Source: a virus (taxonomy: Duplodnaviria > Heunggongvirae > Uroviricota > Caudoviricetes). From it: DNA of 32,286 nucleotides. Below the pieces are notes generated by a model that had not been told where the DNA came from, searched no databases, and saw only the letters and a program-made list of their open reading frames with translations. Shown here in pieces: positions 1-4,267 of this stretch. Where the stretch lies: the IMG/VR virus record IMGVR_UViG_3300024272_000027; one strand, given 5' to 3'. The position numbers were made by a program, and so were the translations under genes. Each line of letters starts with the position of its first letter. The stretch's first letter is position 1.

Positions 1-937
1 ACAACTCACCTCGAGCTACTGATGAATAAGTACATTTGTAATTGTCTGCCCACTTTTTCATCGATTTGATATTTATCTGTTGTCGAGTATTATAGTCCTC
101 AACCGCCTGTTCAAGTGTGAAGCCCATCTCACGAATCTTAGCATCAAGAGCTTCTTGTAATGCTTTACTCTGATTTAAAACATTGCCGTTATCCTTTAAT
201 CTTCTCTCTGATATCATATAAACTTTATTGTCTACAATGATATTACCATAAGCTGCAGCTTGTACCCAAGTAGTCGAGTCGGCTGAAGTTAAAGGGAACT
301 TTTCAAGCACTTCTAATGCAGTACATCCGAAAGCGTGTGTCATAACATCTGGGTTAGGGCTATTCTTGATGATATCAAAACACATCTGCAACCAAGCAAA
401 TCGAGTAGCCGCATTATCTACAGTTGATACCGCAAGTCCTATGTACTTAATATGTTCACCATCTTCAAAAGTATAGTTAAGCATCTTATGTAACCACTTA
501 GTGTCTTCTTCAAAGTGGAATACAGGCATAATCTTATCCCTATACTCAGGCTTAACTTTTGATATCATATATAAGAAGTTTTCCCAACTTTGAGCCGGTG
601 CAGCTGCTAATTCTTCCTCAGTAGGCTCACGACCAATGACCTGAGGAATCTTATCCACTTGAGCATATATAGTTACATAATCGCCGGTGTCATTTATAAA
701 GTTTATGTAGTCATCAACATCAACTTCTTTGCCTTTTGTGTATGCCGTATAAGCACCACTATCCACAAATAAACAAAATGCATTAGGATGTTCTTTAAGG
801 TACTCGATGTCAGATAATATGTGATTACGCTCGTTCAACTGCGAATAAAGTTGGTCACAGCCTAATTCGCGTTTTAGTTCAAGACCCTCTTTTGAACCCC
901 TACCTGCAAAATACAAGTGAAACGGTCCGTTATACAT
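1..937 (-). CDS. dpdA: TGT-fold DNA 7-deazaguanine transglycosylase, phage DpdA type (3' end runs just off the left edge; not in the ORF track)
   Basis: Hand translation from ATG at 937 (GGAGG at 944-948) gives 312 open codons: MYNGPFHLYFAG...LFVDSGAYTAYTKGKEVDVDDYINFIN...AQVDKIP...IMPVFHFEED...YIGLA...THAFGCT...TSADSTTW...KWADNYKCTYSSVARGEL. These match TGT catalytic motifs (DSGA, D-x-IP, H-x-FG, SADS with the nucleophile Asp). No CxCxxC zinc site of bacterial tRNA TGT is visible. From memory it resembles Streptococcus phage Dp-1 DpdA. Adjacent to yhhQ. Confidence 0.85.
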   Translation of the reverse strand, partial: MYNGPFHLYFAGRGSKEGLELKRELGCDQLYSQLNERNHILSDIEYLKEHPNAFCLFVDSGAYTAYTKGKEVDVDDYINFINDTGDYVTIYAQVDKIPQVIGREPTEEELAAAPAQSWENFLYMISKVKPEYRDKIMPVFHFEEDTKWLHKMLNYTFEDGEHIKYIGLAVSTVDNAATRFAWLQMCFDIIKNSPNPDVMTHAFGCTALEVLEKFPLTSADSTTWVQAAAYGNIIVDNKVYMISERRLKDNGNVLNQSKALQEALDAKIREMGFTLEQAVEDYNTRQQINIKSMKKWADNYKCTYSSVARGEL

Positions 938-967: not shown

Positions 968-1000
968 ATTATAATATATTTTTCGGCATAATACAACTAA
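968..1000 (-). promoter_or_regulatory. sigma70/sigmaA-type promoter for dpdA
   Basis: Minus strand TTAG-TTGTAT (991-996), 17-nt spacer, TATAAT (968-973). Same architecture at 5213-5245 and 9702-9734. Confidence 0.75.
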
Positions 1001-1004
1001 TCTG

Positions 1005-1739
1005 TCAATTTATCATTGACAGATAGTTTTTACCGATATTATCTCTCTTCCATTTCTGACATATACCATAACCAATAGGAGCGAACACTGCTTCAAATAT
1101 CAGTTCAAATAAAGCTCCAGTTATAGCACATACAAAACATTGTAGAAGAGTCCAACCAAACAACACTTGGCTAACAATTAACGAGAACACAAAATTGTCA
1201 ACAAATTGTCCGATTGTTGTTGACACATAAGTTCTAACAACAAATACACCATAAGTATCTCTATTGTTGTATAACTTACCAATAGCTGCATTAGTTACAC
1301 TATTAGTAATACTTGCTACAATAAATGCTACCATACTACCAAATACGATATACCAATTACCTTTAACTGTAGCGTCAATAGCTTGATTAACTTCATTCAT
1401 CATTCCAAAATCATAGAATGCACCCCAGTTGCCTGGAATCAATGCAGCTAAGTAAAATAACACCGCTATAACAGCACTAATAAAGGTTGCAACAAGTGAC
1501 ACTTGAACCGATGCTTTAGCACCGAAATGTTTCACTATGATGTCCATACTTAAGAAAGACATCCAAGAAAAAATAATACCGCAGTCAAGCGCTAACCAAT
1601 TATTGGAGAACGCTATTGATTTGTTTGCAAATAAATTCATACAAACAATGGATATCACAAACATTGTTAATACCCAAGCTGGGATATCTTCAAGAAGTGT
1701 TCTAAATTGCTTAAAATAGTTTTTTACTTTATTTATCAT
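1005..1739 (-). CDS. yhhQ: Queuosine-precursor (preQ0/preQ1) transporter, YhhQ/VUT family membrane protein
   Basis: About 6 hydrophobic segments. Family-like motifs ANK..., DIIVKHFG (DxxxExxG-like), RTYVSTTIGQFVDNFVF (RxxxSTxxSQxxDTxxF-like). GGAG RBS at 1747-1750. Next to a TGT-family gene. Confidence 0.88.
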   Translation of the reverse strand: MINKVKNYFKQFRTLLEDIPAWVLTMFVISIVCMNLFANKSIAFSNNWLALDCGIIFSWMSFLSMDIIVKHFGAKASVQVSLVATFISAVIAVLFYLAALIPGNWGAFYDFGMMNEVNQAIDATVKGNWYIVFGSMVAFIVASITNSVTNAAIGKLYNNRDTYGVFVVRTYVSTTIGQFVDNFVFSLIVSQVLFGWTLLQCFVCAITGALFELIFEAVFAPIGYGICQKWKRDNIGKNYLSMIN

Positions 1740-1746
1740 AATTTGT

Positions 1747-1792
1747 CTCCTAAGTTTTATTTATACAGAGGAATATTTGGAATGAACTCTGT
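1747..1792 (-). ncRNA. Candidate preQ1 class I-like riboswitch / translational leader of yhhQ
   Basis: RNA: ACAGAG-UUCAUUCCAAAUAUUC-CUCUGU-AUAAAUAAAACUUAGGAG. 6-bp stem, loop starts UUC and ends C, A-rich tail, loop UUCC can pair with the GGAG SD. Deviations from the canonical aptamer: 16-nt loop, and no loop G for the usual P2 G-C pair. Confidence 0.42.
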
Positions 1793-4267
1793 TTATAATA
1801 CATCTGATAAGAAATCTCTTAACTGCTCTTCAGTGCACTCTTCGTGTTTTGCAGCTATGATGTTGTAGGCATCATTTGGTAAATTTCCAGCGTTAAGCAA
1901 TTTCTTATATTCATCTTGCAATATATTTTTAAAGTCATCATAATACCAACAAGGTGATATTTCAGTATCACACTTGAAAGGAATCTGCACAGTAGGCGCT
2001 GCTGATATTTTCATTATATCTGATAACAATCGTGAAACCTTATCAGCATTTTCTGCAGGACATTCTCCGATAAGCTCATCGTGAACTTGTAACAGCATTC
2101 TAAATCCTAATGCACGTAATTCTTCGCTATCGAAAACTTTACGCATTGCAAGTTTGCTCATTGTAGCCGCTCCACCTTGAACTCGTGAATTGACACTTTG
2201 TCTCTCTGCTTGAGATATGAATGCTCCATTATCTCTTATATCAATCTTATCAAATCGAGCAGCTTCTTTGATTGCATTTACTTGTTTCCAACCTCTTGCA
2301 GCATCTAACTGACTTCGATATTTTTCAATCAACGGATTAACTACTTTTGTTACTAACCCCTTTGAACCTAAGAGCGGATTTATGTCCACTGCATTCTTTG
2401 ATTCACTTTTATCAGTAATAGTATACTGTGGTAAGTTTATATCTGGTAAACGTCTACGACGACCCCAGAAGTCTTCTACATATCCGTTAAGTTTACAGTC
2501 AGCGATAGTTTTATCCATCCATTCGCGAACCTTTGGGAAACCTGTGTAGAAGTCATCAATAATCTTATCAGCTTCTTTAACTGATGCACCAATCTGGTCG
2601 GCAATTGACGCATTACCACGACCATACATAAGACCAAGTAAAATACTTTTACAGTTACCACGTCTTTTCTTACCCATCGGGTTTGGTGAACCGTCCTCAA
2701 AATGCTCCATATTATCCCAGTATGTGTTCTTGTATACACCACAAGCAATAGTTGCATACAAGTCTTTATTCTGTTTGTAAGCTGAAATCATATTCTCATC
2801 TTGAGCATATTCAGCAAGTAGACGCGGCTCTTGTTGTGAAAAGTCTCCACCTACCATAACATAACCATCTGATGCTTTAAACATCAAACGAATTTCTTTG
2901 TTATGGCTCGGGATATTCTGCAAGTTAGGGTCATTGGAACTAAAACGTCCAGTGTCAGTTCCAAGTTGATTAAAGTGTGCGTGAAGTCTGCCATCTGCAG
3001 CATTCACACATCTAGGTAACTTATCAATATATGTACTAATAAGTTTTTCAAGGCCTCGTTGCTCTAAAACAAGTTCACATAACGGATTGTCAATCTTTTC
3101 AAGAATTGCTTCACCTGTTCCTCGTGGTGACTTCTTGTCGATTACGGGTGTACCTAATACATCGTATAGTAGTATTGCAAACTGAGTTGGACTTGTGAGC
3201 TGAGGTGGGTCTTTAAGTTGTTCACTCTTAGATTTCGCATAAACAGTTTCGCCCTTCTTGTTTACTTTTTCGGCTCTAAAGTTAGCTGCATCGGTTTTAC
3301 GCCATTCATTGATTACATCACGATAAGCTTCTAACTGAGTATCAATACGTGATTGCACGTCATCCGCTAACTTATGATATTTCTGGCTTAATCTGTTTGC
3401 ATATTCTATATCAATTTCAACACCTGTAAGTTCCATTTCAGCAGCAACTTCCATAACAGGCATCTCAATATTATGAAATAAATCACTTAATCGTTCGTGA
3501 CCTGGTTGATTAAATTGCAACTGCTGCCACTTATAAAGTTTGTAGGTCATAAATGCGTCAGTAGCTGCATACAATGCAAACAATTCAGGCTCAACAATAG
3601 CATATTCAATATCTTCAAACAAATGGTCGATTGAATATTTTTCAACGGAAGAATCAATCTTATCACGATACTGGTCTTTCAACTTAGCACTCTTTTCGTT
3701 CTCATCAAGAATACGAACAGCTACCATTGTGTCCCAGTAAACTTTTAGTTGAACACCACAAGTACACTTGATAACTTTGTAGTCGAACTTACCGTTGTGC
3801 ATTATTATCTTTGTGCCTACAAGTCTGTTAAACTCTTCTGTTATATCAGCCTCGGTCAACTGATTTTCAAGTCTCTGATATGTAACAGGATTAACGTGAT
3901 TTAAAGGTATATAAGCATTCTTCTGCCCTGGGGTGTATATACAAGGCCCCATAAGTTTACAAGTAATAGGGTCAAGACTGTTATTCGTTTCAGTATCTAT
4001 TGCAATTTCGCCATTAGCAATAGCAGCATCAATATACGCTGTTAATTCTTCACGCGTTCTTATAACTTGTGTATCATCAACAAATCGACCTAATATCTTG
4101 TAAACATTTGTACGAATAGCGTCAAGTTTGTACTCTAACGGAATATTACTTGACTTTATCGCTTTACTGATTACTTTATTAGCATCTTTAGGATTGTTAA
4201 CTTTGTTTATTACTTTTTTAGGAGGAGTCCGCTTTACAACGAACTCCTCACCCCATAATGAACCCAT
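1793..4267 (-). CDS. polA: Family A DNA polymerase (3'-5' exonuclease plus polymerase, no 5'-3' exonuclease)
   Basis: ExoI IAIDTET, ExoII MHNGKFD, ExoIII YAATDA; TGRFSSNDPNLQNIP; motif A DFSQQEPR; motif B KSILLGLMYG; motif C LLQVHDEL. Confidence 0.97.
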   Translation of the reverse strand: MGSLWGEEFVVKRTPPKKVINKVNNPKDANKVISKAIKSSNIPLEYKLDAIRTNVYKILGRFVDDTQVIRTREELTAYIDAAIANGEIAIDTETNNSLDPITCKLMGPCIYTPGQKNAYIPLNHVNPVTYQRLENQLTEADITEEFNRLVGTKIIMHNGKFDYKVIKCTCGVQLKVYWDTMVAVRILDENEKSAKLKDQYRDKIDSSVEKYSIDHLFEDIEYAIVEPELFALYAATDAFMTYKLYKWQQLQFNQPGHERLSDLFHNIEMPVMEVAAEMELTGVEIDIEYANRLSQKYHKLADDVQSRIDTQLEAYRDVINEWRKTDAANFRAEKVNKKGETVYAKSKSEQLKDPPQLTSPTQFAILLYDVLGTPVIDKKSPRGTGEAILEKIDNPLCELVLEQRGLEKLISTYIDKLPRCVNAADGRLHAHFNQLGTDTGRFSSNDPNLQNIPSHNKEIRLMFKASDGYVMVGGDFSQQEPRLLAEYAQDENMISAYKQNKDLYATIACGVYKNTYWDNMEHFEDGSPNPMGKKRRGNCKSILLGLMYGRGNASIADQIGASVKEADKIIDDFYTGFPKVREWMDKTIADCKLNGYVEDFWGRRRRLPDINLPQYTITDKSESKNAVDINPLLGSKGLVTKVVNPLIEKYRSQLDAARGWKQVNAIKEAARFDKIDIRDNGAFISQAERQSVNSRVQGGAATMSKLAMRKVFDSEELRALGFRMLLQVHDELIGECPAENADKVSRLLSDIMKISAAPTVQIPFKCDTEISPCWYYDDFKNILQDEYKKLLNAGNLPNDAYNIIAAKHEECTEEQLRDFLSDVL

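Follow-up and report, generated by a model that had tools for sequence, protein, structure and literature searches.

What occupies the 53 nucleotides that separate polA from yhhQ in a Caudoviricetes virus? A hairpin, an A-rich tail and a Shine-Dalgarno (SD) sequence fill nearly all of this gap, and a sequence-only reading of the locus had proposed that they form a preQ1-sensing riboswitch in front of yhhQ. Our analysis leads to the same family. We conclude with good confidence that this gap contains a preQ1-type riboswitch of class I, type-I-like, which acts on translation. The assignment is carried by the sequence anatomy of the element, purifying selection, covariation of its P1 stem, statistical similarity to type I elements and gene context. 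The stretch of DNA analysed here (the window; 32,286 nucleotides) belongs to a virus record of 161.5 kb with a rated completeness of 96%, and metagenomes from animal faeces and bovine gut contain near-identical DNA.

Anatomy and neighbourhood of the polA-yhhQ gap

The gap lies on the minus strand at 1792-1740. Read 5' to 3', it consists of ACAGAG, UUCAUUCCAAAUAUUC, CUCUGU, AUAAAUAAAACUU, AGGAG and ACAAAUU, followed by the yhhQ AUG, and the earlier description of a stem, a loop, a tail and 7 nt to the AUG matches this sequence exactly. The features of the locus, in the direction of transcription, are as follows.

1793..4267, minus strand: polA, 824 aa, family A DNA polymerase (PF00476, E 3e-89; PF01612)
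1795-1793, minus strand: polA stop codon UAA, as read
1787..1792, minus strand: P1 5' strand ACAGAG, its first base directly after the polA stop codon
1771..1786, minus strand: 16-nt loop UUCAUUCCAAAUAUUC, with UU at 1786-1785 and UC at 1772-1771
1779..1782, minus strand: candidate anti-SD UUCC within the loop (putative P2 5' strand)
1765..1770, minus strand: P1 3' strand CUCUGU, from the sequence and from covariation
1752..1764, minus strand: A-rich tail AUAAAUAAAACUU, with AAAACU at 1758-1753
1765-1758, minus strand: octamer TATAAATA, within P1 and the riboswitch tail
1747..1751, minus strand: SD AGGAG of yhhQ, 7 nt 5' of the AUG, and candidate P2 3' strand
1746-1740, minus strand: SD-AUG spacer ACAAAUU, as read
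1739-1737, minus strand: yhhQ start codon AUG, as read
1005..1739, minus strand: yhhQ, 244 aa, Vut_1/YhhQ transporter (PF02592, E 1e-21), the gene under regulation in our reading
1..937, minus strand, last 5 nt outside the window: DpdA-like gene, 313 aa (PHROG 887 'queuine tRNA-ribosyltransferase', E 8e-49)

The P1 stem has six base pairs, three of them G-C, and is closed by a G-C pair. Because the polA stop codon abuts P1, the element is intercistronic. Its tail resembles the RF00522 consensus AUAAAAAACUAAGgA and is near-identical to the tails of bacterial type I elements such as those of loci L172 and L124. Folded as a single sequence, the element does no better than chance (MFE -6.4 kcal/mol, z -0.35), a score that is uninformative for a 46-nt pseudoknot.

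The flanking genes place the element in a 7-deazaguanine setting. According to literature quoted in PMC6884629 and PMC11625349, YhhQ is a predicted importer of preQ0 and preQ1. The DpdA-like protein is likely a DNA transglycosylase and the user of the imported base, as judged from its PHROG match; Pfam gave no TGT match for this protein and PDB no sequence match. Searches of the phage genome for queC, queD (PTPS) and queF found none of them, so the phage seems to rely on 7-deazaguanine bases that are imported or made by the host. Such reliance has been discussed for DpdA phages (PMC6884629).

Other features of the neighbourhood deserve mention in their own right. A 10-bp inverted repeat at window 1000-1024, which resembles a terminator on either strand, overlaps with the stop codon of yhhQ and sits in the 67-nt space 5' of the DpdA-like gene. 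Just past the window start lies an adh_short (SDR) gene (genome 146429-147118); an SDR gene is kept beside yhhQ and dpdA in contigs L207-L217 and is found directly 3' of yhhQ in L024 (4747-5415), and it may encode a 7-deazaguanine salvage enzyme that has gone unrecognised. Intergenic DNA of the phage genome contains 16 copies of the T-loop word GGTTCGA, a sign of a sizeable complement of phage tRNA genes.

Conservation and covariation in related phages

Relatives were collected through a YhhQ protein search, which gave 12 contigs (L207-L218) with the order polA, element, yhhQ. Those that reach far enough downstream mostly continue with a DpdA-like gene of 308-316 aa and then an SDR gene. The 46-nt core of the element, from P1 through GGAG, is identical at 46/46 positions in L207 and L208, where yhhQ DNA identity to the window is 91.3% and 82.7%, respectively; over the polA 3' end, L207 and the window share 81.7% identity. 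All 29 core nucleotides visible in L209 are likewise identical, at a yhhQ DNA identity of 72.7%. The SD-AUG spacer (7-8 nt) differs in all three contigs, and GGAG is conserved. The element is under purifying selection, with a core that stays the same at flanking-gene identities of 73-91%. A weaker point is that contigs from three other studies, 2-3% diverged over 1300-2300, have no variant listed at 1730-1870, since the listing omits a few variants.

P1 changes among more distant relatives and stays paired throughout. Their stems read AGUGAG/CUCACU, ACUGAG/CUCAGU, CUUGAG/CUCAAG and GCUGAG/CUCAGC, which with ACAGAG/CUCUGU of the window makes five different stems. In an alignment of 13 same-synteny sequences (A5), all cells of P1 (100%) are paired, and in three of its six pairs both partners change; the covariation score of A5 was reached by 0 of 500 shuffles, and slid controls pair in 39-55% of cells. 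Across 45 distinct family members, in an alignment that was fitted to the covariance model, P1 is again paired in 100% of cells, both partners change in five of the six pairs, and the stem is closed by G-C in every case. In the MAFFT alignments A2 and A3, where loops of different length were mixed, the P1 3' strands fell out of register, and these alignments were left unused for that reason. Stem covariation across the same gap in related phages, which the sequence-only reading had named as a check on its proposal, is thus borne out.

Bases outside the stem are constrained as well. Loops of the close relatives range from 10 to 16 nt, and in all 13 relatives the first loop base is U and the loop ends in UC; the second base is U or A. 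The C of the tail is kept in 10/13 relatives and is missing from L215, L216 and L001. These three carry U at that position (AAAAAAUUAGGAG; L215:1147-1193, L216:1147-1193, L001:3930-3975) and are the natural counterpart of the C31U mutation considered below, which may mark them as specificity or stoichiometry variants.

The same contigs hold a side observation on polA. A separate C-terminal polA ORF of about 280-330 aa is found in L207 (1-1146), L215 (1-1140), L216 (171-1016) and L218 (148-1146), and in L207 and L215 it follows a GIY-YIG or NUMOD3 homing-endonuclease-like gene. Its place behind an endonuclease-like gene indicates that polA was split by mobile endonuclease insertion in some lineages. 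The polA of the window is intact.

Relation to known preQ1 riboswitches

Type I preQ1 riboswitches carry a compact signature: UU after the P1 5' strand (U6, U7), UC before the P1 3' strand, with C17 as the specificity base, and a conserved tail C followed by UA (A30, C31, U32, A33) (PMC11625349, PMC8752633). The C31U change strongly weakens a validated type I aptamer and hits the second ligand site (PMC8752633). The window element carries the UU, the UC and the tail ACU of this signature. Its tail reads AAAACUU-AGG, in which A, C and U are present and one extra U precedes AGG (CUU-AGG vs CUA-GG). By analogy, C1771 is the candidate specificity base, corresponding to C17 of the validated aptamer, and C1754 is by its position in the tail the apparent counterpart of the conserved type I C31. 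Validated type I aptamers have a 12-nt loop, the window element one of 16 nt; loops of 15 nt are found among bacterial relatives. The element sits directly 5' of yhhQ, which is followed by the DpdA-like gene, and preQ1 riboswitches classically precede queuosine/7-deazaguanine genes (PMC11625349).

We scored this resemblance with purpose-built covariance models, whose E-values are rough owing to a short calibration. Model R2 was built from nine same-synteny phage relatives, seven type I-variant elements and the phage element L039, with the window sequence type excluded. Run on the 161.5-kb genome, it returned the element as its sole significant match (44.8 bits, E 1.4e-9; genome 144639-144684, window 1792-1747), and the next match scored 10.8 bits. 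Model R3 was built only from the seven type I-variant elements, which come from five bacterial genomes and two metagenome contigs. It too ranked the window element first (25.5 bits, E 5.5e-4), ahead of a match at 12.6 bits. One of the R3 training loops is identical to the C. antarcticum aptamer loop, and the others are one or two bases off (sequence from PMC10018353). A further model, R1, was made from bacterial elements whose loops have 15 nt. It scored the window element at 8.6 bits, and the element was absent from its matches to the phage genome at E up to 10; R1 is too narrow a model. Its 15.2-bit match inside polA (4198-4248) looks like chance and was discarded.

The standard Rfam model behaves differently. 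At gathering thresholds, Rfam found nothing in the window, and RF00522 gave the element 10.8 bits vs a cut-off of 39, the second-best match in the genome (E 1.9). When 351 nt were scanned permissively with Rfam, RF00522 was absent from the matches at E up to 10; the match appears only with a 66-nt query or in a single-family search. RF00522 assigns just 21-24 bits to plainly canonical bacterial yhhQ leaders and 20.2 bits to L039. Failing its cut-off therefore says little, since that cut-off misses canonical-looking bacterial elements. The search with RF00522 and relaxed models that had been suggested for this locus thus divides: RF00522 stays far below its threshold, and R2 and R3 place the element at the top.

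Elements of this kind are widespread in front of yhhQ. Among 40 viral contigs, 80 bacterial genome loci and 80 metagenome loci, almost every related yhhQ is preceded by a hairpin, an A-rich tail and an SD. The bacterial loci belong to gut Clostridia, Coriobacteriia and others, and the elements as a whole fall into several variants. One bacterial variant (seen in L124, L100 and L093, among others) combines the loop UUCG-N-AACCAUC with the tail AAAACUA-N-GGAG, and the L093 loop is identical to that of the crystallised, functionally validated class I type I riboswitch of C. antarcticum (PMC10018353). Leaders of gut Clostridia and Coriobacteriia among L047-L126 include several plainly preQ1-I-like variants that score well below the RF00522 gathering score, most of them unlisted in a permissive scan; their loops read UUUCUUGCCUAAC, UUCGGGUCCGAUAUC and UCCCAGGUAAAAC, and in some of them an inserted hairpin separates P1 from the tail.

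Many viral contigs carry a sister motif before yhhQ, with a covarying stem, a 20-22-nt loop that starts with UUUUGUA and contains CCUGA, and the tail AAAACAAAAAUAAAGGAG. It is found in L003-L010, L025-L040 and L118, and twice in L024: before yhhQ and directly before queF-queC-(HNH)-queD-queE (L024:5428-5477 and L024:3957-3989). R2 gives the sister motif 15-28 bits, and Rfam reports none of these elements. Separately, a 45-kb complete phage contig (G002, the record of L016) has an RF00522-like match at 40828-40866 on its minus strand (21.3 bits, E 0.001 for that record), far from yhhQ. A tblastn search of YhhQ against GenBank phage records gave no match at E 1e-10.

Type I signature, models of canonical elements, P1 covariation and gene context together support the earlier proposal of a preQ1-I-like aptamer before yhhQ. 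The comparator named at the time, a B. subtilis type II element, was right as to the class I family and wrong as to the closest subtype, which is the type I of Carnobacterium antarcticum (PMC8752633, PMC10018353; RF00522). The window element shares with it a G-C-closed P1, a loop that starts UUC, UC before the P1 3' strand, an A-rich tail ending in ACU with the SD directly after it, and, as expected from its layout, translational control. It differs from the C. antarcticum aptamer in its loop of 16 rather than 12 nt, with a different interior, and in its P1 of 6 bp and a tail 3 nt longer, two traits also seen in gut bacterial type I examples. Other differences are the extra U between ACU and AGGAG, a likely P2 that spans the whole GGAG and not just its first two bases, and its phage-borne, intercistronic position. 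Type I aptamers bind two stacked ligands, as the window element may also do.

Other relatives are less close. The E. coli yhhQ leader, a type III element (PMC10622847, as outlined in the summary of PMC11625349), controls the same gene family (yhhQ) and has UU after P1 and a pyrimidine-rich loop; its SD is fully occluded by Watson-Crick pairing, as proposed here for the window element. Type III elements, as the summary describes them, have AC before the P1 3' strand, whereas the window has UC, and they form the smallest type, with the most stringent consensus, and are almost restricted to Pseudomonadota (PMC11625349). Type II elements (B. subtilis queC, T. tengcongensis) share the H-type pseudoknot plan and an A-rich tail of the AAAAAACUA kind, but they too have AC where the window has UC, and the B. 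subtilis type II element acts by transcription termination, whereas no terminator follows the window element. The glutamine riboswitches of marine myophages (PMC9004378) are likewise phage-carried, metabolite-type switches before an auxiliary gene, but differ from the window element in class, ligand and target gene.

Proposed control of yhhQ and its alternatives

Considering how such an element could act on yhhQ, we looked at the pairing between its loop and the SD. The loop UUCC (1782-1779) is able to pair with GGAG (1750-1747), and the pairing is extendable by the loop AAA (1778-1776) with UU across one A-A mismatch, in line with the pseudoknot that the sequence-only reading put forward. Relatives carry a pyrimidine patch at the same place in the loop. 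The four P2 pairs of A5 are formed in 91.7% of cells, vs 82.4% in shuffled and 46-69% in slid controls. In single sequences, loop-SD complementarity does not exceed that of shuffled loops (window P 0.71), and we therefore treat P2 as a putative helix, consistent with the known architecture of the family. A terminator scan called none 3' of the element. With no terminator there and an SD at the end of the tail, control at the level of translation is to be expected.

Our proposal for ligand, P2, OFF direction and physiological purpose is as follows. The RNA forms the G-C-closed, 6-bp P1, and the A-rich tail would dock along it. The loop UUCC would then pair with GGAG of the SD to give an H-type pseudoknot. 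A 7-deazaguanine base (preQ1, possibly preQ0) would sit between P1 and P2, where C1771 and C1754 could read it, and by stabilising the knot would hide the ribosome-binding site. When the precursor for DNA insertion by the DpdA-like enzyme is plentiful, less YhhQ importer would be made. By analogy with its family, the switch thus most likely shuts off importer synthesis at high precursor; it is from family membership that we infer both the ligand and the direction of the response.

The intercistronic position bears on this proposal. No convincing promoter precedes the element; a weak sigma-70-like candidate, TTAAGA-16-TATTAT at 1822-1795, matches 9/12 positions and was rejected, as the count of such sites is not clearly above that in shuffles. 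Contigs of one metatranscriptome run leave 1674-1769 uncovered. As P1 starts at the base next to the polA stop codon and the element lacks a convincing promoter, each terminating polA ribosome would unfold it. Such repeated unfolding would count against a riboswitch. After each polA ribosome, the aptamer would have to refold and sample ligand before initiation at yhhQ.

Several other explanations of the same hairpin have to be weighed. The element could be a relic, derived from a riboswitch and brought in when the phage acquired yhhQ, that no longer senses a ligand and sets a fixed low level of translation or stabilises the mRNA. Its enlarged loop and low RF00522 score would suit a relic, as would the loss of the tail C from L215, L216 and L001, given what C31U does to a validated aptamer (PMC8752633). 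Yet the whole 46-nt core, unpaired pocket positions included, is identical at 73-91% flanking identity, and 13/13 relatives keep the first loop U and the last UC unchanged, although a mere hairpin needs neither; we consider a relic improbable. Slightly less probable still is a protein-binding translational operator or RNA-processing site, for a RegA-like repressor or a nuclease, that merely looks like a preQ1 aptamer. A conserved hairpin beside an SD in an intercistronic region is what such a site would look like, but a likeness of this kind does not sit well with statistical similarity to canonical bacterial type I elements and shared signature bases, or with the presence of the same element family before yhhQ in bacteria that lack phage proteins and before queF-queC-queD-queE in another phage.

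The remaining alternatives concern transcription. The sequence-only reading had cautioned that TATAAATA (1765-1758) might be a T4-type late promoter for yhhQ and dpdA, which would make the hairpin incidental. The octamer does lie 26 nt 5' of the AUG, but it is not enriched in the genome (12 copies vs about 16 expected on the coding strand; 5 vs 2.6-4.0 expected in intergenic DNA), and same-synteny relatives read CUAAAAAC, UAUAACUA, GUAAAAUA or GCAAAUAA there, with hairpin and tail kept; the octamer is missing at this site in L210, L212 and L215-L217. The same UAUAAAUAAAA tail, moreover, occurs in chromosomal riboswitches of Clostridia, and a transcript begun 3' of the octamer would be without P1, yet P1 covaries. 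Neither enrichment nor conservation speaks for this promoter, and we rate it very improbable. An intrinsic terminator of polA, to which the position of the hairpin directly 3' of the polA stop codon might point, can practically be dismissed: the stem is weak (6 bp, three G-C pairs), its loop has 16 nt, the stretch that follows is A-rich and not U-rich, and the terminator scan did not call it.

If the type-I-like riboswitch is accepted, its ligand handling may still depart from the canonical pattern. In a speculative extension, which we regard as unlikely, the enlarged loop would mark a phage-adapted derivative of the class I preQ1 riboswitch, either tuned to preQ0 or reading two stacked ligands cooperatively, that gates DNA hypermodification (anti-restriction) and not tRNA queuosine. 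PreQ0 is what DpdA enzymes usually place in DNA, and preQ0 tuning would take place in a phage without queF to make preQ1. Were this extension true, L215, L216 and L001, with U at the position of the tail C, would be specificity variants.

Much of this picture builds on what is already known: the preQ1 class I riboswitch, its H-type pseudoknot and its link to yhhQ. Less ordinary is that the element is carried by a phage, has a loop of 16 nt and probably buries the whole SD, that the regulated importer serves a DNA-modification module, and that the standard Rfam model misses the element. Riboswitches are rarely documented in phages. Our literature search, of incomplete coverage, found no report of a phage preQ1 riboswitch. 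Streptococcus phage Dp-1 was considered as a carrier and rejected: Rfam finds no such riboswitch in the Dp-1 queuosine cluster, and none is annotated there.

For the family as a whole, the RF00522 cut-off misses many preQ1-I elements of gut bacteria and phages. The roughly 50 covarying sequences assembled here, with loops of 10-22 nt, offer material on how much loop expansion the smallest riboswitch fold tolerates. For the phage, the element would wire a known switch class to another end use, the import of 7-deazaguanine for DpdA-type insertion into phage DNA and so for restriction evasion, and it suggests that phages gauge the precursor pool of their host during infection.
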